Assembly: GCA_002633005.1 (NCBI GenBank)
Contig: NMRA01000071.1
Location: 92,976 to 156,975, forward strand
Source: Phoronis australis
Taxonomy: Eukaryota; Animalia; Phoronida
Length of the DNA: 64,000 nucleotides
Direction: 5' to 3'
Shown: positions 5,983-50,009 of the stretch, one piece after another
Layout of the letters: each line of letters begins with the position of its first letter
How positions within the stretch are numbered: position 1 is the stretch's first letter
The notes under the pieces: generated by a model
The model's database searches: none
Told to the model about the DNA's origin: nothing
The model's input: the letters and a program-made list of their open reading frames with translations, nothing else
Position numbers and translations under genes: made by a program

Positions 5983-7010
5983 TCAGTGGACTGGATGGGT
6001 TACCAGTGGACTGAATGGGTTACCAGTGGACTGAATGGGTTACCAGTGGACTGAATGGGTTACCAGTGGACTGAATGGGTTACCAGTGGACTGAATGGGT
6101 TACCAGTGGACTGAATGGGTTACCAGTGGACTGAATGGGTTANNNNNNNNNNNNNNNNNNNNNNNNNNNNNNNNNNNNNNNNNNNNNNNNNNNNNNNNNN
6201 NNNNNNNNNNNNNNNNNNNNNNNNNNNNNNNNNNNNNNNNNNNNNNNNNNNNNNNNNNNNNNNNNNNNNNNNNNNNNNNNNNNNNNNNNNNNNNNNNNNN
6301 NNNNNNNNNNNNNNNNNNNNNNNNNNNNNNNNNNNNNNNNNNNNNNNNNNNNNNNNNNNNNNNCCAGTGGACTGAATGGGTTACCAGTGGACTGAATGGG
6401 TTATTAGTGGTGTAGGATGTCAAATGCGTTTTGAGTTCAGAGTTAACGATAGATGGCGCGGCAAGTCAGTGCTTTGTATAGTTTTCAGGTTCGCCGCTTG
6501 TAACGCTGCCTGTCACTTCCTGTTTTTTGCTGAATTTATGAAAGTCGTGTTTTTTCTTGCTCCTTGTAAGTTGTTATTTTCAACGTCATTCCATTCGATG
6601 TTATAGCTTGTCGTTTGCTTCATAGTTGCTCAGTATATTAGAGTTATTTTCCATTCCTTTTCGAGGCTTTGTGTGCTTGCACATTGGCGGTTCGCTCCAC
6701 TGAACTTGACCACGCGGTCATTTGACATTGGTTTGACCTCTAGTTCATTTTGAGTTTGCAATTAGAAACCAGTTGTTTCGTCTATTAGTTTTGGTGCTAT
6801 TATTCACTGTGATACTTGTTGATTTGTTTTCTTAATTATTTATTTGTTTATTTCGCTAACATTTGTTTTTTAATTTTCTTTTAGGAAACCTTATGTACTT
6901 CTTGTACGACCGTATGCCAGACCGTATGGCCTCACGATGTTGAATAAATGAAATGTTTTGAATCCTACAAGTGGACTGAATGGGTTACCAGTGGACTGAA
7001 TGGGTTATCA
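5983..7010. repeat. 20-bp satellite with assembly gap (N 6143-6363), interrupted by a solo LTR
   Basis: (ccagtggactgaatgggtta)n on both sides of the gap and of the insertion. Confidence 0.95.
6411..6969. mobile_element. solo LTR, 559 bp
   Basis: TGTAGGAT...ATCCTACA termini, 5-bp TSD AGTGG (6406-6410 and 6970-6974), AATAAA near the right end. Confidence 0.8.
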
Positions 7011-7410: not shown

Positions 7411-7619
7411 CCACAAGCAGTTTGGAGCAAGTAGTGGCTAAAGGTATGTCCATGAAGACGCAGCTTGACACTCGCACATATGTTAAAATGTAACTAAATT
7501 CATGTGACTTCAACAAGTTGTGGCACGGTACAATGACTGACACAAGAAGACCTAATTTAACAACAATACATAGAACATACAATAATTAGAGAGAGAGGAG
7601 ACAGTAAAGGCAGGCTAAC

Positions 7620-7864
7620 CTCTTGGAGAATATTCCACTGAGTGTATCCAACACACCATTCAAGGACAGCTGAAGTTCCTTCAGAATATCAGCAGCATTC
7701 TTATCCACATTATCACCTCCCATGGCTTTAAACACTTTATCAAGTTGGATGCGCAGTTGTTGGATGTTGTTCATGAGGATACAAGCCACCTTCTGTTTAC
7801 CACAATAATGTGGAAAGTCTGCACGCAGCAAGTCAGCATAGGCAAGCAGCACTTTATTGACAGT
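7620..7864 (-). CDS. unc-13: unc-13 exon, MUN: TVNKVLLAYADLL...CILMNNIQQLRIQL...LSGIFSK(S), 245 nt
   Basis: ttttcag acceptor, AG|gttagc donor; lies within ORF 7586..7903. Confidence 0.95.
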
Positions 7865-7979
7865 CTGAAAATAAGTGACGTCTCTATTAATAGACAGACT
7901 CATCTGACAAAAATATGCTATAATAATGTCAAAAATATCAGGGAATGCAATATGAAGTCAATAGATAATTAATACTCAC

Positions 7980-8123
7980 CAGAGCAAATCTCTTCATGTA
8001 TCTCTTTTCAATCTCAGGATCAGGACACTCTAACTTCTTAATCACTTCAAAACATTGGTTAAGGTTTGCAAACACATCAGTGACAGATGTAGAAAACAGG
8101 ACGTGCTCAGAGCTCTTCTGGAA
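7980..8123 (-). CDS. unc-13: unc-13 exon, MUN: [48 protein letters not shown], 144 nt
   Basis: gttacag acceptor, CTG|gtgagt donor. Confidence 0.95.
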
Positions 8124-9892
8124 CTGTAACCATCATCAACCATCTCAAAATGAAGTGTATCAAATATCATCTAACACAGGAAATGGAACATTTATCATTT
8201 ATCAGTTAGTTCGGTAAAATCTCACAAATTTAGGACAGATACAGCAGGCAAATGAGATTTATTTTAAATTTTTTTCACAAAAGATATATGAGCCCCAATG
8301 AAACCTTTCACACCATGGCTGTAAATGGTTGAATTCAGTAACCAAAAATTTGGTATGATACTTTAAATATTTCTTCTTCAATTTATGTACTTTTAATCAA
8401 GAAACAAAAGCAAAAATTAAATAATTAAAAATTTTGTGACATCATCAGTGGATCTGGTCTACACCATTGTGTTGTTCTACACCAGCACCAAGCTGAAGTG
8501 GTCACGAAAACTGAGTTCAACAGAGTATTATGAAAAGTTGCATGCGCATAGGATGCAGTAACAGCAATCGGACAGACAGACAGACAGACAATATTTGTGT
8601 TTCCAAAAGACCGTAACATCACCCAGAAATTGCAGAGGTTCAAGCATCGAATAGTACACAGTAGAGCATGCGAAAAGTTCAGGGGTCACACAGTGCTCAG
8701 CCCATTATGAAGCATTGTGCTTTGATCTGTCACAGAAACAGTTATTTGATGAAGGATTCTCCAATATGTAAGTGCATTTGATGGTGTATTATGTTGTACC
8801 ATTGCTAGGAACATAAAACACATGTTGACTATGAGCCTCACCATCAAATTGTGACAGAGATAATGAATGAGATTGCAGTAAGTTTCTGACAGTCTACTCT
8901 TGTTCAAGCTTTGTGGGAGATAAATGCTATCCAAATATACACCAATGCCCATTAGTAAAAAATGAGATGCATAGGTCACGCAGTTTGAGATCATGACAGC
9001 AGCCAGAACAGAGGCTAGTCCGATACCAGACCAAAATAATCGACGAATCACATCGGTACAAAACTTTCATGGTTTTGGAAGAGACAAGACAGAAACCAGT
9101 ATCATTTACCGTATTCGCCCTAATAAGCACCCAGGGCACTTACAAAAATTCGTTTCAGGATGGGGGGCGCTTATCATGGCCTAAAGCAGTTGAAACCCGG
9201 TCTCCAAAACGGGTGAAAATCTAAGATAGGATTCATCAAATTAATGCTCTGTGACGTATCTGTAACCTATGACAGACTTTCTTCAAAATTATGGTGCATT
9301 GTTATCAAATTTCTTTGTTATATTACGGTCATTTTTCAGAAAACTGTTCTGAAATTCCAGGGCGAAAACTCGTCGACTGATGCGTCACTACCTCGCCATC
9401 GTCGAAAGGGCAACTTGAATTCTTGAATAAAAATATAGTTTCGAAATAGCGTCCCCGAGATTTTTAAGCTTCTGTGGTGTCAGAATTAACTGCACATAAG
9501 TCCAAATCTTTGCTAGATCGTTCCCCGCAACATGAGAAAGTTTTGGACACAGGTTGTTGTCACGTGACATTTGTTTGAAGTTCGTCTGCGTGCGTGTGAT
9601 TAAGCGAGGACATGCGTATCACCAGAGTTCATTTGCCAGAGTAAAGGCAGTGTAACGATCTGGGTGTGCATTGTAACTAAAGAAATTAACGCAAGCAGTA
9701 AATCAGAACGTGTTTTAGTCGGCACTTGTTGATCTCATCTGCAAAAACCGTTTGAGAATTGTCTCAGTAAGTTGCCGGATGACTGGATGCGTGACAGTCT
9801 AACAGTTATTTTCCGGGAGATTCGGGGAGGTCTAAGGGTGCGGATGTGCTGACTATCAGAGGGTTATTTTGACTTTAAAAACACCAATTATG

Positions 9893-14380: not shown

Positions 14381-15810
14381 CGTACGGCAGCTTAAATCCA
14401 TTTGGTGAAAATAAAATTAATGTTCAGTTATTACATACTAACAGCAAGAAATCACACTACATATTATTAAACCTTGCATTTTAAAATGGAGTTTTCCTCC
14501 GCACAACTTTCCATCATTTTGGTAATTGTATCTCGGCCTTTTGTTGTAGGATGTATAGAAACTTCTGCATTGGTTGTGTTTAAAGACCTTTCAAATTAAA
14601 ATACAAGATGTACTTTCACCAAGTCTTGGCAGAATGTGCAAGATTTTGTCCATATCCTCTTGTGCAGAAATGTCAGTGCATTCCTCTCCAGAAATTTCCA
14701 TTACTAGTTATATAATTCTTGTACCATGATAGTATGTTACCTAGTTGCAGAAAGAAAATTTTCAATGGCAGACATCTTGACGCTGAACTCGCCTTTTTTC
14801 ACGGCAACAAATGCACTTGACTTCTGAATGCACGAGTCCGCATGGGCTTGGTGCAAAGCTGTGACAGCGCAAAGCTTTGCACCAATGTGAGTAAAAAATT
14901 GACAAAATGAAATCTGACACAAAATTAGTGTCATAAAAAGCTATTCTCTTCCTTGAGTAAACTTAATTATTTACCAGTGTTGCAATATGACATTCTACCT
15001 TTATTTTGCTGTTAAAATTGTAGTGCAGTTCTTTGCATCAGCTTTTGATGCCATGAATTATTACGTCACTATTGGCCAGTTTCTTTTTCCCTAATTATTC
15101 AATCAAATATTTTTCTCTTCCACGAGGTTGTGAACACTTCACAACAAATTATCGGAACTGGTTTCATTTCGTTACAAGTTTTTAGTATTTTAATACCTGC
15201 AAAAATATTGCTGCTACATAGCTATCATCATCTCCCATAACACGTCACAAAATTTTAAGAAATGGTGCACGCACGTGCCCTGAGCGTACTGTTTTAAAAA
15301 TGACACAGACTTTTCTTTGTTAAAAAAAGCAAAGAATTACGCAAGAAAATGACATTTATTAAAGTGTTTACCACTTAAACGGCTGCAACGGGCAAGATGA
15401 GCATTAGTTGAACCCCAGATTTTGCAGGTTTGAATGACGAAATATGTACTATACATTCAAATTGTTCATAACTTATTGGTAATACCAGTTTGTACCTTGC
15501 CCACCCTTCAACACACAGTCAGGTAAAACATCCAGGTAAAAATTTTGACCTCCAAAAATTCCAGATTGAAATTTTGGGTTTAAGCCAGAAAATCCAGGCA
15601 GAAAAATGTTCCTAAAATTGTCACTAGGAACACTGTTCTCAGATTTTCGTCGGGTTCTCATCTGAAATGTTTACTTGTATTTGCTTGCATTCACTAGAAA
15701 TACAATCAACTAAGTTACTTACTAATATTCACGACTGAATATTTTAAGGTTGTTAATCATTTTTTCACAACAAAGAATGGAAAGACAAAACTTGTTAATT
15801 ACAAAGCACT

Positions 15811-18800
15811 GGGTCTGATTGACAGCTTTTAAATATAGGGTCTGATTGACAGCTTTAAAATATAGGGTCTGATTGACAGCTTTTAAATATAGGGTCTGAT
15901 TGACAGCTTTTAAATATAGGGTCTGATTGACAGCTTTTAAATATAGGGTCTGATTGACAGCTTTTAAATATAGGGTCTGATTGACAGCTTTTAAATATAG
16001 GGTCTGATTGACAGCTTTTAAATATAGGGTCTGATTGACAGCTTTTAAATATAGGGTCTGATTGACAGCTTTTAAATATAGGGTCTGATTGACAGCTTTT
16101 AAATATAGGGTCTGATTGACAGCTTTTAAATATAGGGTCTGATTGACAGCTTTTAAATATAGGGTCTGATTGACAGCTTTTAAATATAGGGTCTGATTGA
16201 CAGCTTTTAAATATAGGGTCTGATTGACAGCTTTTAAATATAGGGTCTGATTGACAGCTTTTAAATATAGGGTCTGATTGACAGCTTTTAAATATAGGGT
16301 CTGATTGACAGCTTTTAAATATAGGGTCTGATTGACAGCTTTTAAATATAGGGTCTGATTGACAGCTTTTAAATATAGGGTCTGATTGACAGCTTTTAAA
16401 TATAGGGTCTGATTGACAGCTTTTAAATATAGGGTCTGATTGACAGCTTTTAAATATAGGGTCTGATTGACAGCTTTTAAATATAGGGTCTGATTGACAG
16501 CTTTTAAATATAGGGTCTGATTGACAGCTTTTAAATATAGGGTCTGATTGACAGCTTTTAAATATAGGGTCTGATTGACAGCTTTTAAATATAGGGTCTG
16601 ATTGACAGCTTTTAAATATAGGGTCTGATTGACAGCTTTTAAATATAGGGTCTGATTGACAGCTTTTAAATATAGGGTCTGATTGACAGCTTTTAAATAT
16701 AGGGTCTGATTGACAGCTTTTAAATATAGGGTCTGATTGACAGCTTTTAAATATAGGGTCTGATTGACAGCTTTTAAATATAGGGTCTGATTGACAGCTT
16801 TTAAATATAGGGTCTGATTGACAGCTTTTAAATATAGGGTCTGATTGACAGCTTTTAAATATAGGGTCTGATTGACAGCTTTTAAATATAGGGTCTGATT
16901 GACAGCTTTTAAATATAGGGTCTGATTGACAGCTTTTAAATATAGGGTCTGATTGACAGCTTTTAAATATAGGGTCTGATTGACAGCTTTTAAATATAGG
17001 GTCTGATTGACAGCTTTTAAATATAGGGTCTGATTGACAGCTTTTAAATATAGGGTCTGATTGACAGCTTTTAAATATAGGGTCTGATTGACAGCTTTTA
17101 AATATAGGGTCTGATTGACAGCTTTTAAATATAGGGTCTGATTGACAGCTTTTAAATATAGGGTCTGATTGACAGCTTTTAAATATAGGGTCTGATTGAC
17201 AGCTTTTAAATATAGGGTCTGATTGACAGCTTTTAAATATAGGGTCTGATTGACAGCTTTTAAATATAGGGTCTGATTGACAGCTTTTAAATATAGGGTC
17301 TGATTGACAGCTTTTAAATATAGGGTCTGATTGACAGCTTTTAAATATAGGGTCTGATTGACAGCTTTTAAATATAGGGTCTGATTGACAGCTTTTAAAT
17401 ATAGGGTCTGATTGACAGCTTTTAAATATAGGGTCTGATTGACAGCTTTTAAATATAGGGTCTGATTGACAGCTTTTAAATATAGGGTCTGATTGACAGC
17501 TTTTAAATATAGGGTCTGATTGACAGCTTTTAAATATAGGGTCTGATTGACAGCTTTTAAATATAGGGTCTGATTGACAGCTTTTAAATATAGGGTCTGA
17601 TTGACAGCTTTTAAATATAGGGTCTGATTGACAGCTTTTAAATATAGGGTCTGATTGACAGCTTTTAAATATAGGGTCTGATTGACAGCTTTTAAATATA
17701 GGGTCTGATTGACAGCTTTTAAATATAGGGTCTGATTGACAGCTTTTAAATATAGGGTCTGATTGACAGCTTTTAAATATAGGGTCTGATTGACAGCTTT
17801 TAAATATAGGGTCTGATTGACAGCTTTTAAATATAGGGTCTGATTGACAGCTTTTAAATATAGGGTCTGATTGACAGCTTTTAAATATAGGGTCTGATTG
17901 ACAGCTTTTAAATATAGGGTCTGATTGACAGCTTTTAAATATAGGGTCTGATTGACAGCTTTTAAATATAGGGTCTGATTGACAGCTTTTAAATATAGGG
18001 TCTGATTGACAGCTTTTAAATATAGGGTCTGATTGACAGCTTTTAAATATAGGGTCTGATTGACAGCTTTTAAATATAGGGTCTGATTGACAGCTTTTAA
18101 ATATAGGGTCTGATTGACAGCTTTTAAATATAGGGTCTGATTGACAGCTTTTAAATATAGGGTCTGATTGACAGCTTTTAAATATAGGGTCTGATTGACA
18201 GCTTTTAAATATAGGGTCTGATTGACAGCTTTTAAATATAGGGTCTGATTGACAGCTTTTAAATATAGGGTCTGATTGACAGCTTTTAAATATAGGGTCT
18301 GATTGACAGCTTTTAAATATAGGGTCTGATTGACAGCTTTTAAATATAGGGTCTGATTGACAGCTTTTAAATATAGGGTCTGATTGACAGCTTTTAAATA
18401 TAGGGTCTGATTGACAGCTTTTAAATATAGGGTCTGATTGACAGCTTTTAAATATAGGGTCTGATTGACAGCTTTTAAATATAGGGTCTGATTGACAGCT
18501 TTTAAATATAGGGTCTGATTGACAGCTTTTAAATATAGGGTCTGATTGACAGCTTTTAAATATAGGGTCTGATTGACAGCTTTTAAATATAGGGTCTGAT
18601 TGACAGCTTTTAAATATAGGGTCTGATTGACAGCTTTTAAATATAGGGTCTGATTGACAGCTTTTAAATATAGGGTCTGATTGACAGCTTTTAAATATAG
18701 GGTCTGATTGACAGCTTTTAAATATAGGGTCTGATTGACAGCTTTTAAATATAGGGTCTGATTGACAGCTTTTAAATATAGGGTCTGATTGACAGCTTTT

Positions 18801-20176
18801 AAATATAGGGTCTGATTGACAGCTTTTAAATATAGGGTCTGATTGACAGCTTTTAAATATAGGGTCTGATTGACAGCTTTTAAATATAGGGTCTGATTGA
18901 CAGCTTTTAAATATAGGGTCTGATTGACAGCTTTTAAATATAGGGTCTGATTGACAGCTTTTAAATATAGGGTCTGATTGACAGCTTTTAAATATAGGGT
19001 CTGATTGACAGCTTTTAAATATAGGGTCTGATTGACAGCTTTTAAATATAGGGTCTGATTGACAGCTTTTAAATATAGGGTCTGATTGACAGCTTTTAAA
19101 TATAGGGTCTGATTGACAGCTTTTAAATATAGGGTCTGATTGACAGCTTTTAAATATAGGGTCTGATTGACAGCTTTTAAATATAGGGTCTGATTGACAG
19201 CTTTTAAATATAGGGTCTGATTGACAGCTTTTAAATATAGGGTCTGATTGACAGCTTTTAAATATAGGGTCTGATTGACAGCTTTTAAATATAGGGTCTG
19301 ATTGACAGCTTTTAAATATAGGGTCTGATTGACAGCTTTTAAATATAGGGTCTGATTGACAGCTTTTAAATATAGGGTCTGATTGACAGCTTTTAAATAT
19401 AGGGTCTGATTGACAGCTTTTAAATATAGGGTCTGATTGACAGCTTTTAAATATAGGGTCTGATTGACAGCTTTTAAATATAGGGTCTGATTGACAGCTT
19501 TTAAATATAGGGTCTGATTGACAGCTTTTAAATATAGGGTCTGATTGACAGCTTTTAAATATAGGGTCTGATTGACAGCTTTTAAATATAGGGTCTGATT
19601 GACAGCTTTTAAATATAGGGTCTGATTGACAGCTTTTAAATATAGGGTCTGATTGACAGCTTTTAAATATAGGGTCTGATTGACAGCTTTTAAATATAGG
19701 GTCTGATTGACAGCTTTTAAATATAGGGTCTGATTGACAGCTTTTAAATATAGGGTCTGATTGACAGCTTTTAAATATAGGGTCTGATTGACAGCTTTTA
19801 AATATAGGGTCTGATTGACAGCTTTTAAATATAGGGTCTGATTGACAGCTTTTAAATATAGGGTCTGATTGACAGCTTTTAAATATAGGGTCTGATTGAC
19901 AGCTTTTAAATATAGGGTCTGATTGACAGCTTTTAAATATAGGGTCTGATTGACAGCTTTTAAATATAGGGTCTGATTGACAGCTTTTAAATATAGGGTC
20001 TGATTGACAGCTTTTAAATATAGGGTCTGATTGACAGCTTTTAAATATAGGGTCTGATTGACAGCTTTTAAATATAGGGTCTGATTGACAGCTTTTAAAT
20101 ATAGGGTCTGATTGACAGCTTTTAAATATAGGGTCTGATTGACAGCTTTTAAATATAGGGTCTGATTGACAGCTTT
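15811..20176. repeat. 27-bp satellite, ~162 near-identical copies, ending at a single-N join (20177)
   Basis: (gggtctgattgacagcttttaaatata)n; I saw only one variant copy (~15855). Confidence 0.99.
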
Positions 20177-20177
20177 N

Positions 20178-20608
20178 CATTCTAACATACCACATCATAC
20201 AGTGTTACGTTCATTCTAACATACTACATCATACAGTGCTACGTCCATTCTAACATACCACATCATACAGTGTTACGTTCATTCTAACATACTACATCAT
20301 ACAGTGCTACGTTCATTCTAACATACCACATCATACAGTGCTATGTTCATTCCAACATATCACACTATACAGTGTTACGTTCATTCTAACATATCATAGT
20401 GTTACCTTCACTCTAATATACCATATCACTCAGAGTTACCTTCATAATAACATATCAAATCATACAATGTTACCTTCATTCTAACACAGGATATTGTACT
20501 TGTTACCTTCATTATAACGTGGCACATTGCAAGGGTGTAACCTTCATTCTTATGAAACCTATTGTATAGAATTGCCTTCAATCCAGAATGTTAATGGAAA
20601 TTGGTTAC
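20178..20608. repeat. 34-bp minisatellite apparently derived from the adjacent exon donor junction
   Basis: cattctaacataccacatcatacagtgttacgtt; exon-proximal copies read gttaccttcatt, like the true junction ggttaccttcattctaaa. Confidence 0.85.
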
Positions 20609-28205: not shown

Positions 28206-28784
28206 ATATAACAAAATATTATCTCCATTTCGGCTAAAGCCTATAAACCAAGGGATGCGCATTAATAATTGGTGCATGATCAGGACAAGCTGGACTACAA
28301 AGCATAATACTTACAATGAATAGACACGGGTGTAGGGACAAACATTTGGCAAAGTACTTACAATGAATAGACATGGGTGTAGGGATAAACATTTGTCAAA
28401 GTACTTACAATAGCTAGGCTAGGCGTAGCAAGAATTATCATGTAGCACGACTACATGCTCAGTGCACCAATTTAGTGCCTTTGTTTGAGTAGCTTGTGTA
28501 AACGTTTATTGTACATGGTAGGCTGTCATAATCACTTAAACTCCACAAAGATGAGTACAGTAGTATAGACCAGACATGCATGTGTACGTACCTCGTGTAA
28601 ACACGTATATTGCACATGGTAGAGTGCCGTAATCACTTGATCTTAAAGTCCACAAAAAGACATGCATGTGTACGTACCTCGTGTAAACACGTATATTGCA
28701 CATGGTAGGGTGCCATAATCACTTGATCTTAAACTCCATGAAGATGAGTACAGTAGTATAGACCAGACATACATGTGTACGTAC

Positions 28785-28900
28785 CTCGTGTAAACACGTA
28801 TATTGCACATGGTAGGGTGCCACTTTCTCTTCACCCTTAATCTCCACACTAATGTGTAATCGAATAGCACCAGATACAGCAGACTTGTCAGTTCTTTTTT
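28785..28900 (-). CDS. unc-13: unc-13 exon: (E)[38 protein letters not shown], 116 nt
   Basis: ttttgtag acceptor, GAG|gtacgt donor; near-identical to the Munc13 consensus. Confidence 0.96.
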
Positions 28901-30427
28901 CTACAAAAAGACAAACCACCATCACTCCATTTTATATTCAAATTGTTTCACTTATAATACATAGAGTCCCTCAACTTAAACAAATGAGTTTGGCTCATGT
29001 AAAATTTTAATACTACTTGGAAATAAAAGAGCCAGAACCTTTATGTACAACATAATTTATGTCAAGTGGACAAAACCAAGGTCACGACAAGTAAGAATCA
29101 TAGCTGAGATTATTGGTGTTTTAGCTGATGAAGTACACAGTTAAGCAATGAAATATTATTTTAAAAAACAACAGACAAAAAGATACATAGGACACAAGAC
29201 CCATTTATCAAAGAAAAATTAACATATTATCACAATGTTCAATCATACACATGACAATATAATACACAACAATACAATATAATACAATGTAACACAATAC
29301 AATATAATACAATGTAACACAATAATACAATACAATCAGATACAATTCCTACATCTTAGATTCAATTCTGCTAAGTGACTAGTTTTCAATATTTACACAG
29401 CTGAGAAAAAAACATAGTCCTGAGCCAATTTAGACACGGGCAACTGATGAATGAATTTAACAACTTATCAAAGCATATTAAACATTAAAAAACAGGGTAA
29501 AAACTTGGGTGGGTTAATAAACATAAGTCTTGAGGCTGTGAATGCATTAACAGTATTTGAAAGAAACACACTACAAATGTTTTGTGTCACAACAATGAAA
29601 CTGATAGGGACACTGCAGGGTCACACAAGCCACCAACAAGGTTGCTATTTGAAATACAGGTTCATAACCATCAACATAATAAATAGACGGAACATGGTAA
29701 AATGAGCAGTGAGAAATAAAGGTCACTTTAGGTTAAAGCCCTCATCAACATAATATATACATATATATAGCCTCATTAACATAACATATCAAACATGGTC
29801 TATATAAACAGTAAGCAACAAGGTCACTAAACTCTCATCAATTTGGGACAATATGGCAGACATGAGAATTTTTATTTTCTCGTGTTTTTCATAAATGACA
29901 CGTAGCATCAAATTGGTGCTTGAAGTTAGTTACTGTCAGTAGCTCCCAACAAAAATATGAAAATGTGAGGAAATCCAGAGCAATGCCTTGAAAAATGAAC
30001 AAGATCACATAAGGTCAGTGACCTGCGCCCACAATGCATCACAAAAGATGTTTCTGAGGGTAACTAGAAGGTGCTATAATAGTAGTTGAATCCTCTCGAA
30101 AATCACATAATGCCAGAGCATTGTCTTCATGTATCCCATAATGCCTAATAAGGGCATTGTCTTCATATATCTCTGAGTCAAGTTTTATTCAGCTCATTCA
30201 CTTCACAAGATATTCACAAAATTAATGCTATTCCACCAAACAATACCTGAAAAGCTCCTTACAAAGAACAAAATAGTGCTGCCACATGGTCATCATACAC
30301 CAAATGATATGTAAAGTTTGGTTAAAATCCGTCAACCGATTCCATAGATACCATCCATGAACACTCTTCATCTAACAAAACTTGACAAGCTCATTATCAT
30401 GTTGATGCAGTGGCAAATCCAGCCTAA

Positions 30428-36654: not shown

Positions 36655-36785
36655 CTAGATTGTACCAGACATCCATCTCCCCAGACAAAGTACGGACCTC
36701 AATCGTTGTTTGACCCAGGAAGTCATCCGATTCCCTTGATGTGAACCTTGACCTTAGTCGCGACCTGAGGTCATCGTCTTCATCC
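36655..36785 (-). CDS. unc-13: unc-13 alternative exon 2b, C2B loop 3: [43 protein letters not shown] (131 nt)
   Basis: tttcatctag acceptor, TAG|gtcagt donor; phase 2-1; one codon longer than 2a; many synonymous differences in the shared 3' half. Confidence 0.92.
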
Positions 36786-36833
36786 CTAGATGAAACCATT
36801 TTAATCTCAAAGCACATTATTGATAATACCCAC

Positions 36834-36961
36834 CTAGGTTATACCAGACGTCCATCTCACCACTCAGCGTGCGCACCTCAATAATCGTCTGACCAAGGAA
36901 ATCATCCGATTCTGGGGTGAACTTTTTACGCAAAAATGACTTAATGTCATTATCTTCATCC
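36834..36961 (-). CDS. unc-13: unc-13 alternative exon 2a, C2B loop 3: [42 protein letters not shown] (128 nt)
   Basis: tatgtag acceptor, TAG|gtgggt donor; phase 2-1. Confidence 0.92.
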
Positions 36962-40190: not shown

Positions 40191-40431
40191 GTTACCTTTT
40201 GTTTACTGAAGCTGGGAAAGTTGACACTCGCATCAACAATGCTATCACATTGGAAGACATAAGAAAACTTGAAATGACATTACCTGACACATGTGGCCAG
40301 TAGGAGTATTGCAATTATATGTTTAAAGTGACATTACCATACACATCTAGAATGTATCACTGAAAATAAGGGTTCAGGTCATGCGACACTGAATTAATCT
40401 AGCAAATGGCCTCATGACAATCAATACTTAC

Positions 40432-40573
40432 AAGTAGAATGTTTCATCCCACACTGGGTTCAGGTCCTGTGGCACTGTCTTGGTCTGTTTCTTTGTCTTG
40501 CCCACCTGTACTGTCACATAGGGGTCACTAGTGCCAGTCTTGTCTTTTCCAATAAGACCCTGAGCACATATAA
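40432..40573 (-). CDS. unc-13: unc-13 exon, C2B: (V)[46 protein letters not shown](F), 142 nt
   Basis: gttgtag acceptor, TT|gtaagt donor; C2 SDPYV and LNPVW motifs. Confidence 0.96.
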
Positions 40574-40929
40574 CTACAACGGAACCAAACATATAGTTAG
40601 AAACACATGGTAAAACACCATGATTATATATCCACTCATGAAAGGTAAGCCCTACTTCAACTTAATAAAGTATGAAGCACGGCAAGATCATTGCCCACGT
40701 TTATCCTAAGGTATGTTTTGTGGAGATGCAAGAAGTCAGTGAAGAGATCACAGACTGGGGCCTACCGCAAATATGAACGGGAGTTAGAGATCTACATGGT
40801 TGACTGAAAACAAGCAAAAGAACATAAGAAGTATGTCATTGAGAAATATATTTTGAATATTTATCACAACAGTCTGAGAAAAGACAAGTTGTGAATAAGT
40901 CAAACGATAACACCAAAATTAGCTATGAA

Positions 40930-45200: not shown

Positions 45201-45910
45201 CCTGCATAGTGAGTCTTGGCTAGTGGTCAGAAAATGTATGACTGAAAAGAGACAAGGACAATAATGCAGACCACAGAAATGGAGAGTAATGATGACCAGA
45301 CCAGATATATGAACAGTGCGTGCTGGTAACCAGAGACAATGACAGTACTGGTGAATAGTGATAAGGACAGTACCAATGACCAGACCAGACATATGAACAG
45401 TACTGTTGACCCCATGTATGGTCAGTACTGTTTAACCAGGATATGGTCAGTACTGGTGACCACTTGTATGGACAGAACTGGTGACCACAGATACGGACAA
45501 CTCTAGTGCCCAGTGAGACAAGGTAAGTACTGGAGACAGGAGTACAGGTCACTACAACACTAATGGAGAACAACAGCAACTTATGTATATAGTCTGTCTT
45601 CTGCAAAATTGATTAATTCTAGTTAGTAATACTGTACCTCAACCATGGCGCTGCAAAATGTTTGAAGTCGAACATGCGAGAACACAAACAACGTGAATGA
45701 GAGGAAGGGTTCATAAGAGGTTCAATGTAAAAGGCGTTAGTAATACAACATGGAAACTAAGTTTAACATGTCTTTGGTCTTGTTAATAAATGTTAACTGA
45801 AAGTACAAAATATAAAAAAATGAGTTTCAACTACACAACAGTCATCATTCTCTATACTTAGGCTGACCGCCACCAGAGGGCGAGCATGCTCCAACACCAG
45901 GTGTCACTAC

Positions 45911-46017
45911 CTGTGATGGCTATTTTTGCCGACCATTTTGATGTGCCATCCAGTATCATCTGCTTGGCTTGCTCCATGTCTGTTTTATGTTGATTGCCAT
46001 CGACATGGAATGTCTCT
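45911..46017 (-). CDS. unc-13: unc-13 alternative exon 1b: ETFHVDGNQHKTDMEQAKQMILDGTSKWSAKIAIT (107 nt)
   Basis: tattgcag acceptor, CAG|gtagtg donor; canonical LDGTSKWSAKI start of C2B. Confidence 0.92.
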
Positions 46018-46066
46018 CTGCAATAGTCATGTGATAGTCATGTGATATGCAAGTGACTCAACTGAC

Positions 46067-46173
46067 CTGTTATCTTAAGTTTGGCAGACCACTTGGATGT
46101 GTTCTCAATAACGGCAGCATGCAGGGTGTTCATTGAAGAAGAATGCACTTTGTTCAGCACATGAAACAACTGC
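46067..46173 (-). CDS. unc-13: unc-13 alternative exon 1a: QLFHVLNKVHSSSMNTLHAAVIENTSKWSAKLKIT (107 nt)
   Basis: ttttgtactgcag acceptor, CAG|gtcagt donor; open frame, same length and phase (2-1) as 45911-46017, shares TSKWSAK. Confidence 0.85.
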
Positions 46174-46231
46174 CTGCAGTACAAAACAACATAACTTGAA
46201 ACTTATCATCAACCAAGTAAATCTAGCCAAA

Positions 46232-46625
46232 TCATAGACTATATAGATAGGGACTAGTATCTATGGTCATATATAGACTATATAGATAGGGACTAGTATC
46301 TATAGTCATATATAGACTATATAGATAGGGACTAGTATCTATGATCATATATAGACTATATAGATAGGGACTAGTATCTATGATCATATATAGACTATAT
46401 AGATAGGGACTAGTATCTATGGTCATATATAGACTATATAGATAGGGACTAGTATCTATGGTCATATATAGACTATATAGATAGGGACTAGTATCTATGA
46501 TCATATATAGACTATATAGATAGGGACTAGTATCTATGGTCATATATAGACTATATAGATAGGGACTAGTATCTATGGTCATATATAGACTATATAGATA
46601 GGGACTAGTATCTATGGTCATATAA
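46232..46625. repeat. 42-bp minisatellite, ~9 copies, ~60 bp upstream of alternative exon 1a
   Basis: atagactatatagatagggactagtatctatggtcatat. Confidence 0.93.
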
Positions 46626-47355
46626 GGTATGAAGTGGTTCACCATTTATTAACATATAAACCTTGACATATGCTATTCCATAAAAATTCAACATACTACA
46701 ATGCTGAATGCCCCAATAATAACTCCGCATAACAATGAAACATGGTTATGTTTAAACCATGGCCACTATGAAATGACATTTTGACACTCACGTTTTGAAG
46801 TCAGACCCCACGATTGAAAATGTCTTAGCAAAATCCAACTCCCAATAGCAGAAAATCACTTCAGACAAGCAGACATACAGTGGATATGTGTACATATAGC
46901 TGCAATTGCATATTTTCACTACACACCATCTCTGCCCAGTTCAACTCATTAGCCACATGATCCTCTCGCAAGGACCAAATACAGACTCTCCCTTTCACTA
47001 CATTCTTATGGTGATCACGCTGATATACATTTGGTGGGCACATATCAAGTTGTGCCACTGAGTTGCTTAGGCAAGTTACACAATAGCCTTATTCCAACCT
47101 CTGGCACATAGTTGACTTCATGCAAGCCCAAAATATGTCTTTGTAATAAAGCTTTTGACAATTGATATCCGCACCTGGAAAATCACATGACTTGAATGGC
47201 CTGATAGGTGGCGCTTCAGTGCTGTGCATTTACCAGAGCAGTGGGACACTGAGATTATAAATGAGTAACTGTTAACTAGCGGACAACAACATGGAAATAA
47301 AATAAAGTTGCATCCAAATGGAGAACAGCTTTTCTAGTGTATAGAATGTAAGAAT

Positions 47356-49035: not shown

Positions 49036-49156
49036 TTGATTAACTCAAAAATCTCAGGTTTGTTTCTTTCCCTGATTTTCATCCTATCCTTCATGGCCAT
49101 GATGATGTTCTGAGTTTTGTCCTGTGCTCCGTGTTTAGAGCTCTTCTCTGCTGCTC
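49036..49156 (-). CDS. unc-13: unc-13 exon, C1-C2B linker (R)[39 protein letters not shown](K), 121 nt
   Basis: ttaccag acceptor, AA|gtgagt donor; phases 1 and 2 match neighbours. Confidence 0.95.
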
Positions 49157-49789
49157 CTGGTAACAACATACAACTGTTAACATACAACTGGAAACTGAGT
49201 TTTGTCCTGCGCTCCATATTTAGAGCTCTTCTCTGCTGCTCCTGTTAACAACTTACAACTGTCAACATACAACTGGCAACTAAATACTTAACAAAAAATA
49301 GAACTGAGAGCAAGTTACAATCAAAATGCTTCATATCATGTAACATAAGACTAGGTACGTATTTCAATAAACTGTATCATACTAGATACCTAAAACTTGT
49401 CAATTTTGGTTTTGAATTATTGTCTGATAGAACCAGAGTGGAAAATTTGATTAAAAAATTGTATACATAGAAAGTTGTAGCCAGTTTTCCCGTGTTATGA
49501 CATTTTGCTTAATATTTTTTCCTAAAGAGAATGTTAAAATGTGTCAAGTTTATGGATGAATTGTCAAGAGTGGGTCTCCGCATCATGCTGCAGTAAGCAA
49601 TACAAGTCACCGATAGTCATCCATTTTTCTGAAAGAGGTCACTGTGGGCTATTTCTGTGTGCTAGATTATTTCGGGGTTATGGGCATTTGTGAAAGAGAC
49701 CTGATCGGGCTCTTTCAGAAATCCTTTGTATACTGTGAAAAGTAGTAGTTGAACGTGCCTGCATTATTTTGTAGTCAAGATATACTCAC

Positions 49790-50009
49790 GTTGTAAACAG
49801 TCAGCATTAAGCAGGTTCTTACACTTTTCATGACACTTGACCCCACACTCTGTACATCGGACACACTGCCGGGTTATTCCCCATAACAGACCTTGACACT
49901 CAAAGCAGTACGTTGGAGACGTGAGTGACCAGACAACAAAGTTATGAGGCGTTGTGCTTGAGATGGGGTAGATTAAGGCTTGCAGTGTCTTTTTATACAC
50001 ATGCATTTT
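49790..50009 (-). CDS. unc-13: unc-13 exon, C1 (DAG/phorbol-binding) domain, 220 nt
   Basis: [73 protein letters not shown]; ttttag acceptor, C|gtgagt donor. Confidence 0.97.

Follow-up and report, generated by a model that had tools for sequence, protein, structure and literature searches.

In the phoronid Phoronis australis, the homologue of unc-13/Munc13 carries two 107-nt exons that quite likely form an exclusive tandem pair in which the choice of exon would swap a basic for an acidic helix, thereby changing the hold of the C1–C2B module on the membrane or on itself. Within 34 RNA-seq reads, the two exons, here called A (upstream) and B (downstream), have been shown to be used mutually exclusively, and the spacer between them is never retained.

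The unc-13 Gene of Phoronis australis

The gene lies on the minus strand, and most of it is contained in the window, i.e., the whole 64-kb stretch of DNA analysed here. With bivalve unc-13 proteins as queries, tblastn located about 20 exons between 60.6 and 0.9 kb; the alignments end in an exon at 875–958, and the gene apparently continues past the window on its 3′ side. A C1 (phorbol ester/diacylglycerol-binding) domain is predicted at 49764–50009 (Pfam C1_1, E = 4.6e-13), a C2 domain (C2B) directly after the linker at 40428–40661 (Pfam C2, E = 9.4e-16), and a MUN domain on two exons at 7586–8132 (Pfam MUN, E = 2.2e-22 and 9e-22). By these predicted C1, C2, and MUN domains the gene is identified as an unc-13/Munc13 homologue. 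The exon coding for the C1 domain (49788–50009, minus strand, extent taken from the alignment) shows 88–91% identity to bivalve unc-13 by tblastn, and the two exons with the Pfam MUN domain that identify the gene span 7622–8123 (minus strand).

The constitutive linker exon upstream of the pair occupies 49036–49156 (minus strand), its donor at 49036 being defined by reads and its acceptor by sequence alone, and the first constitutive C2B exon downstream of the pair occupies 40431–40573 (minus strand), with the acceptor at 40573 defined by reads and the 3′ end by alignment alone. Several repeats have also been observed in and around the exons of this gene. An 85-nt tandem duplication at 49110–49281 (two copies, 91% alike) takes in the acceptor region of the constitutive linker exon together with its first ~47 nt, so that the 5′ part of this exon is present a second time, as a decoy, farther upstream. 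At 28580–28931 (minus strand), the 3′ end of an exon at about 28900–28773 recurs twice behind it, in part and in frame, as tblastn matches at 28824–28678 and 28627–28580, which suggests small local tandem duplications including a donor region. An intronic tandem array of ~4.4 kb at 15722–20204, in which the repeat unit leaves two frames of the minus strand without a stop over more than 1400 codons, looks like a satellite and not a gene. Finally, the run of N at about 6120–6340 (223 N in the window), lying between copies of a short repeated motif, is an assembly gap in an intron.

Two 107-nt Exons in Tandem

Exon A lies at 46067–46173 and exon B at 45911–46017, both on the minus strand and separated by a spacer intron of 49 nt (46018–46066) that is predicted to be too short for splicing out. 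Each exon is exactly 107 nt long, is preceded by AG and followed by GT, and has the same phase, opening with one codon-completing base and closing with one codon-starting base. In a gapless alignment, A and B share 14 of 35 residues (40%) and 50 of 107 bases, so that the initial annotation, which had described two same-phase exons of this length and spacing with about 40% identity, proved exact to the base; the residues that it had listed as common to both (FHV, H, M, and TSKWSAKxxIT) are indeed shared. Both peptides align end to end with residues 132–166 of 5ue8_A, the solved C1–C2B–MUN structure of rat Munc13-1 (E = 2.5e-5 for exon B and 8.6e-3 for exon A), and exon residues 17–35 align to the C2B construct 6nyc_A.

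The same annotation had argued from the open frame and the equal length that both exons are functional. The stop-to-stop frames containing the two exons have 54 and 59 codons, and 1551 of 9051 sampled 105-nt segments of the minus strand (17%) are likewise free of stops, so that an open frame of 35 codons is by itself weak evidence. The coding status of both copies is nevertheless supported by their in-frame expression (see below) and by their codon pattern. Degenerate codons exist for 12 of the 14 shared residues, and at seven of these 12 the two exons use different codons; identity between A and B at codon positions 1, 2, and 3 is 16, 23, and 10 of 35, respectively. Third positions are thus near random while second positions are kept, which points to an old duplication and to selection at the protein level on both copies, and the order of conservation (second, then first, then third) indicates that A and B have been under long purifying selection.

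RNA Evidence for One-at-a-Time Use

Three stranded RNA-seq runs of the same species (X1, X2, and X3) were used, about 18% of each run being read; reads were placed on the repeat-free stretch 45600–46230, and junctions were listed when seen in at least three reads. The numbers of reads placed were 14, 14, and 6 in the three runs, making 34 reads (17 pairs), all at least 99% alike to the stretch. The first mate of every placed read maps to the plus strand, which is the orientation that a usual stranded library gives for a minus-strand gene. Read depth is limited to exons A and B up to their exact borders, with zero depth in the 49-nt spacer and in the flanking introns, and every placed read continues into sequence outside 45600–46230. 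The loose ends found before 45911 and before 46067 consist of the same 30 letters, which are located at 40544–40573 adjoining AG; those behind 46017 and behind 46173 are the same as each other but for one polymorphic base, and are located at 49036–49058 adjoining GT. Hence, A and B are each joined to a common upstream donor (49036) and to a common downstream acceptor (40573), and the four junctions that had been predicted beforehand (49036→46173, 49036→46017, 46067→40573, and 45911→40573) are all confirmed by the loose ends of the reads. At about 49059, in the upstream linker exon, reads of one and the same run as well as reads of different runs have either C or T (plus strand); by its frame reading, this difference is synonymous and looks like a polymorphism.

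No joint between A and B is present among the joints with at least three reads (34 reads, three runs, ~18% of each); rare transcripts with both exons, or with neither, may exist below this threshold. Since each exon is joined directly to the common neighbours, with an empty spacer and no A–B joint listed, the earlier reading of the two exons as a mutually exclusive pair holds. Transcripts including 46067–46173, whose lack would have told against that reading, are present, exon A being covered in all three runs. The depth on the two exons varies from run to run: it is ~5–9 on B and 2–3 on A in X1, ~1.3–3 on B and 4–5 on A in X2, and 0 on B and ~3–4 on A in X3. Resting on 17 read pairs, these differences between runs are not statistically secure and are only suggestive.

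Probable Basis of the Exclusivity

The alpha-tropomyosin exons 2 and 3 are an example of mutually exclusive splicing by steric interference. The Phoronis pair resembles this type in its exon lengths, which are not divisible by three, so that joint inclusion breaks the frame, and it would resemble it also in its intervening intron, which is predicted from the sequence to be too short for the joint use of donor and branch point. The whole spacer being 49 nt, any branch point for B has to lie less than 50 nt from the donor of A, and the branch-point-like sites predicted within it are at most ~28 nt from that donor. In a survey of human mutually exclusive exons, a distance from donor to branch point below 50 bp was taken as the criterion for steric interference (Hatje, 2017, PMC5740500). 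Because 107 is not a multiple of three, joint inclusion or joint skipping disrupts the reading frame: inclusion of A plus B leads to a stop at codon 98 and skipping of both to a stop at codon 57 (as read in window coordinates), while the frame stays open with A alone or B alone. Exclusivity would thus be enforced mainly by the 49-nt spacer, through steric interference between the donor of A and the predicted branch point of B, and the disruption of the frame would act as a backstop, possibly by way of nonsense-mediated decay. We regard this mechanism, which depends on a predicted branch point, as moderately likely.

Alternatively, exclusivity might not depend on the short spacer: it might be achieved by RNA base-pairing in which docking and selector sites compete, or solely by splicing factors specific to certain cells. 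Exon clusters of arthropods commonly use mechanisms of this type (PMC6071210), and factors could bind to a satellite of ten 39-nt copies located 60 nt upstream of exon A. In the stretch 45500–46700, however, no docking/selector arrangement has been found, the 25 longest of its 70 inverted pairs being all palindromes inside that satellite; moreover, both alternative pairs of this gene have spacers of 48–49 nt, a length that a structure-based mechanism does not need. We therefore consider a pairing or factor mechanism in place of the short spacer unlikely. The satellite itself (46234–46624) consists of ten units that are 98% alike and rich in internal palindromes; it ends 60 nt before the acceptor of exon A, and a role in exon choice is possible.

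A Second Pair in the C2B Domain

The second pair has the same design as the linker pair and lies farther downstream on the minus strand, within the C2B domain. It consists of exon p1 (36834–36961, 128 nt) and exon p2 (36655–36785, 131 nt), whose lengths both leave a remainder of two when divided by three, separated by a spacer of 48 nt (36786–36833). In the three runs, 8, 15, and 1 reads were obtained for this pair; they cover p1 (36961–36834) and p2 (36785–36655), the latter in X1 and X2, and the depth over the spacer is zero. Exon p1 is joined by reads to 39755 and to 28900, with p2 skipped. Oysters, Mytilus, venerid clams, Mya, and Lingula likewise have annotated isoforms with two versions of the C2B segment, and a second version has not been seen among the listed gastropod, cephalopod, and deuterostome isoforms.

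The Protein Segment Encoded

According to the crystal structure, four helices are present in the C1–C2B linker (PMC5344669). The four helices between C1 and C2B are reproduced in an AlphaFold model of a Lottia relative, which was built from an alignment of 37 sequences and is of modest confidence (mean pLDDT 60.6, and ~43–71 over the segment). In this model, the segment equivalent to the alternative exon corresponds to residues 152–186 of the protein and would run from the final three residues of linker helix three through helix four in its entirety (158–174) and a loop of five residues into the first C2B strand (180–191), whose first seven residues it includes.

Exons A and B share 5 of the first 24 residues, which make up the helix part, and 9 of the last 11, which make up the loop and strand; their net charges are +3 and −1, respectively, a difference of four units. 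The helix positions that remain common to both are spaced three to four residues apart, as expected for a retained packing face. On the modelled structure, the exon switch appears to rewrite the last linker helix and to leave the loop and strand nearly unchanged. The initial annotation had the pair rewriting both the linker helix and the first C2B strand; its first half agrees with these data and its second half does not.

Counterparts in Other Animals and Origin of the Pair

A protein search with the upstream linker exon gave 2514 significant proteins, the best 120 of which were examined. A recognisable version of the segment is present in 118 of these 120 proteins, and it matches exon B at 17–22 of 35 residues and exon A at 11–16. 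Identity to the bivalve proteins amounts to 80–97% in the flanking exons, 55–64% in B, and 44–47% in A. For a wider comparison, the segment lying between the flanking exons was extracted from 235 of 321 proteins, with isoforms taken from 29 clusters (up to 15 from each); its length is 37 residues in 216 of the 235, including one flanking residue on each side.

A canonical version of the segment, conserved at 27–35 of 35 residues, is found across most of the protostomes examined. Compared with the canonical reference, the alternative versions of other animals keep 19–23 of 35 residues, exon B keeps 21, and exon A keeps 17, so that neither exon of the window has the near-invariant canonical sequence. 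The earlier description of B as canonical-like and of A as divergent is right as to their order of identity, with the correction that neither exon is itself canonical. A tblastn search of the window with seven relatives as queries, up to an E of 10, detected no third, canonical copy (matches to E 1 being examined for P0046 and P0047).

Isoforms with a divergent version at exactly this segment are known from other lophotrochozoans. Among bivalves, they comprise Magallana gigas X3 (P0134; compare X5, P0047), Ostrea edulis X3 (P0149), and Mytilus californianus X3 (P0140); among gastropods, Haliotis cracherodii X2 (P0273) and Gigantopelta aegis X2 (P0229). In the brachiopod Lingula anatina, 10 of the 13 isoforms carrying the segment have the divergent version, which is one residue longer. 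In all seven taxa with two versions the alternative is the less basic one, the net charge being +4 or +5 in the canonical version and −1 to +3 in the alternative. The isoforms listed for Dreissena (14), Mercenaria/Ruditapes (14), Mya (15), octopuses (9), and a mite (4), those listed for hemichordates and echinoderms, and the vertebrate proteins examined showed no second version. In a limited check of arthropods, the four mite proteins were all canonical and Daphnia had a single, very acidic version. As a separate observation, the model P0250 of the cuttlefish Acanthosepion pharaonis has a 39-residue segment at this place without the conserved loop-and-strand core, which is either a very divergent alternative exon or mis-modelled.

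A maximum-likelihood tree of 25 versions of the segment (35 columns) has one well-supported branch among its 22 inner branches. The oyster alternatives pair together (99/98) and so do the gastropod alternatives (83/78), in neither case with their own canonical versions; exon B is placed weakly among the alternatives, and exon A lies on a very long branch among the canonical versions. Judging by net charge and by this weak tree, A may be the counterpart or descendant of the canonical version, rather than B.

Exon A is the most divergent version of the segment seen, that of Daphnia apart. An exhaustive phmmer search with exon A against 1.84 billion representative proteins, in which isoforms are collapsed into one representative, gave no genuine match; the sole hit, P0191, was discarded as spurious because it is a low-complexity repeat of 147 residues. 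A word-index protein search with the stop-to-stop frame of exon A, a weaker kind of evidence, gave no candidate either. A comparison by a less conserved MUN exon revealed no close relative, the best matches being 57–62% identical. This divergence, together with the long branch and the lack of look-alikes among public proteins, would fit an exon that is cryptic or in decay and is included through splicing noise, B alone making a working protein. Such a view is nevertheless very improbable, since exon A is in frame and precisely joined to both constitutive neighbours, is present in three runs, being the deeper exon in X2 and the sole exon seen in X3, keeps the invariant loop-and-strand core through synonymous changes, and retains the basic charge of the canonical version.

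A and B (35 residues here) and the versions of the relatives occupy the segment between the same flanking exons. From these sequences it would appear that the pair belongs to a lophotrochozoan-wide alternative of “basic versus less basic” at this exon. An independent, lineage-specific duplication, merely convergent with the mollusc and brachiopod arrangement, is the most serious competing account. It would explain that each of A and B resembles the canonical version more than it resembles its partner, that neither groups securely with the alternative versions, and that only the canonical version is seen in the listed isoforms of heterodont bivalves, octopuses, and deuterostomes. Yet it would leave to coincidence a position, length, and phase that are the same as in seven other taxa, and a charge dichotomy common to the window pair and its relatives; it also sits uneasily with the tree, where B falls weakly with the alternatives and A with the canonicals, and with the saturation of the third codon positions, which makes the duplication old. 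Independent origin thus keeps a substantial chance, although a minority one, and membership in the lophotrochozoan-wide alternative is the reading followed here.

Proposed Functional Significance

Neurotransmitter release has Munc13/UNC-13 as its master priming factor, and how the lipid-sensing C1 and calcium-sensing C2B domains of this protein are coupled is under active study (PMC5344669; PMC11991699). There are extensive contacts between its four linker helices and helix H1, MUN, C1, and C2B, mutations at the interfaces of these helices change release probability and potentiation, and basic residues of the C1–C2B region may mediate alternative orientations on the membrane (PMC5344669). In addition, the inhibition that C1 and C2B exert on each other requires the linkers (PMC11991699). 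In both studies the linkers were perturbed by artificial mutations or deletions (PMC5344669; PMC11991699).

In the mechanism proposed here, exclusive splicing of the tandem-duplicated 107-nt exons would replace a basic last C1–C2B linker helix by an acidic one, exchanging the exposed face and the charge of that helix while its packing face and the C2B strand are kept. Such a swap might alter the mutual restraint of C1 and C2B, or the way in which the module lies on the acidic plasma membrane, and in either case the neurons choosing one exon would show an altered release probability or plasticity. An effect of the exon choice on C1/C2B coupling had already been put forward, as something inferred, in the initial annotation. 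That exon choice tunes C1–C2B coupling or membrane orientation, and hence release probability or plasticity, is a plausible but tentative proposal, to which we give slightly less than even chances. A more far-reaching version of this idea is that of an ancient two-state switch of protostomes, predating the split of molluscs, brachiopods, and perhaps arthropods, in which a basic and an acidic helix, kept as mutually exclusive exons, would set release probability and plasticity according to the type of synapse by altering the restraint of the C1–C2B module or its seat on the membrane. The switch would have been re-tuned in the lineage of Phoronis, since both copies have left a sequence that is near-invariant from priapulids to vertebrates. 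We hold this version to be rather unlikely at present.

Alternatively, the two isoforms could be exclusive but functionally equivalent, a neutral relic of the tandem exon duplication in which the face of the helix drifts freely. The helix part is indeed poorly conserved, not only between A and B but also against all relatives; the departure of both copies from the canonical sequence could mean relaxed constraint, and very few reads underlie the differences between runs. Against free drift, however, the pattern by codon position shows selection at the protein level on both copies, at least six further lophotrochozoan taxa have an alternative coding of the segment, always with a drop in net charge, the shared helix positions keep the spacing of a packing face, and the proportions of A and B are opposite in X1 and X2. 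Functional equivalence is for these reasons given a low probability, and a functional difference between the two helices is preferred.

In terms of significance, the window alone provides a well-supported annotation and not a surprise in kind. A natural pair of helices in one gene, both expressed and with parallels in other phyla, nevertheless offers a ready test of the last linker helix. It also suggests that invertebrates may diversify release by splicing where vertebrates use paralogous genes.

Comparison with Known Systems

Exclusive exons derived from tandem duplication are a well-known kind of arrangement, and the pair at this particular exon is already contained in automatic gene models of lophotrochozoans. 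A search of titles and abstracts of the openly accessible literature found no paper describing such an unc-13 exon pair; two related papers mention unc-13/Munc13 only in passing (PMC12084633; PMC2823689). Described cases of a similar kind are the Syt1, Syt34, and Esyt2 genes of invertebrates, coding for presynaptic or membrane-trafficking proteins, in which mutually exclusive tandem exons re-encode part of a C2 domain and have arisen repeatedly (Craxton, 2010, PMC2823689). These are other genes, however, from a collection that does not include unc-13, and the variable part of unc-13 is the helix before the C2 domain and not the C2 fold. Another example is mammalian Munc13-1, where alternative splicing likewise takes place within the conserved C-terminal part, at the loop 1408–1452 of MUN (PMC5344669). 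The mammalian event hits a poorly conserved loop of the MUN domain, whereas the Phoronis event hits the C1–C2B linker.

Finally, the closest parallel is provided by the unc-13 isoforms of lophotrochozoans in RefSeq and GenBank. In these isoforms the same segment of 35–36 residues is likewise swapped, with the core kept and the alternative being less basic. One of their two versions is the near-invariant canonical sequence, whereas in Phoronis neither is (17 and 21 of 35 residues); and they are automatic gene models, whereas the Phoronis pair is backed by RNA evidence at the level of single junctions. The pair of Phoronis is therefore a real, expressed, and RNA-supported addition to a set of annotated and apparently unstudied pairs, its peculiarity being the departure of both copies from the canonical sequence.
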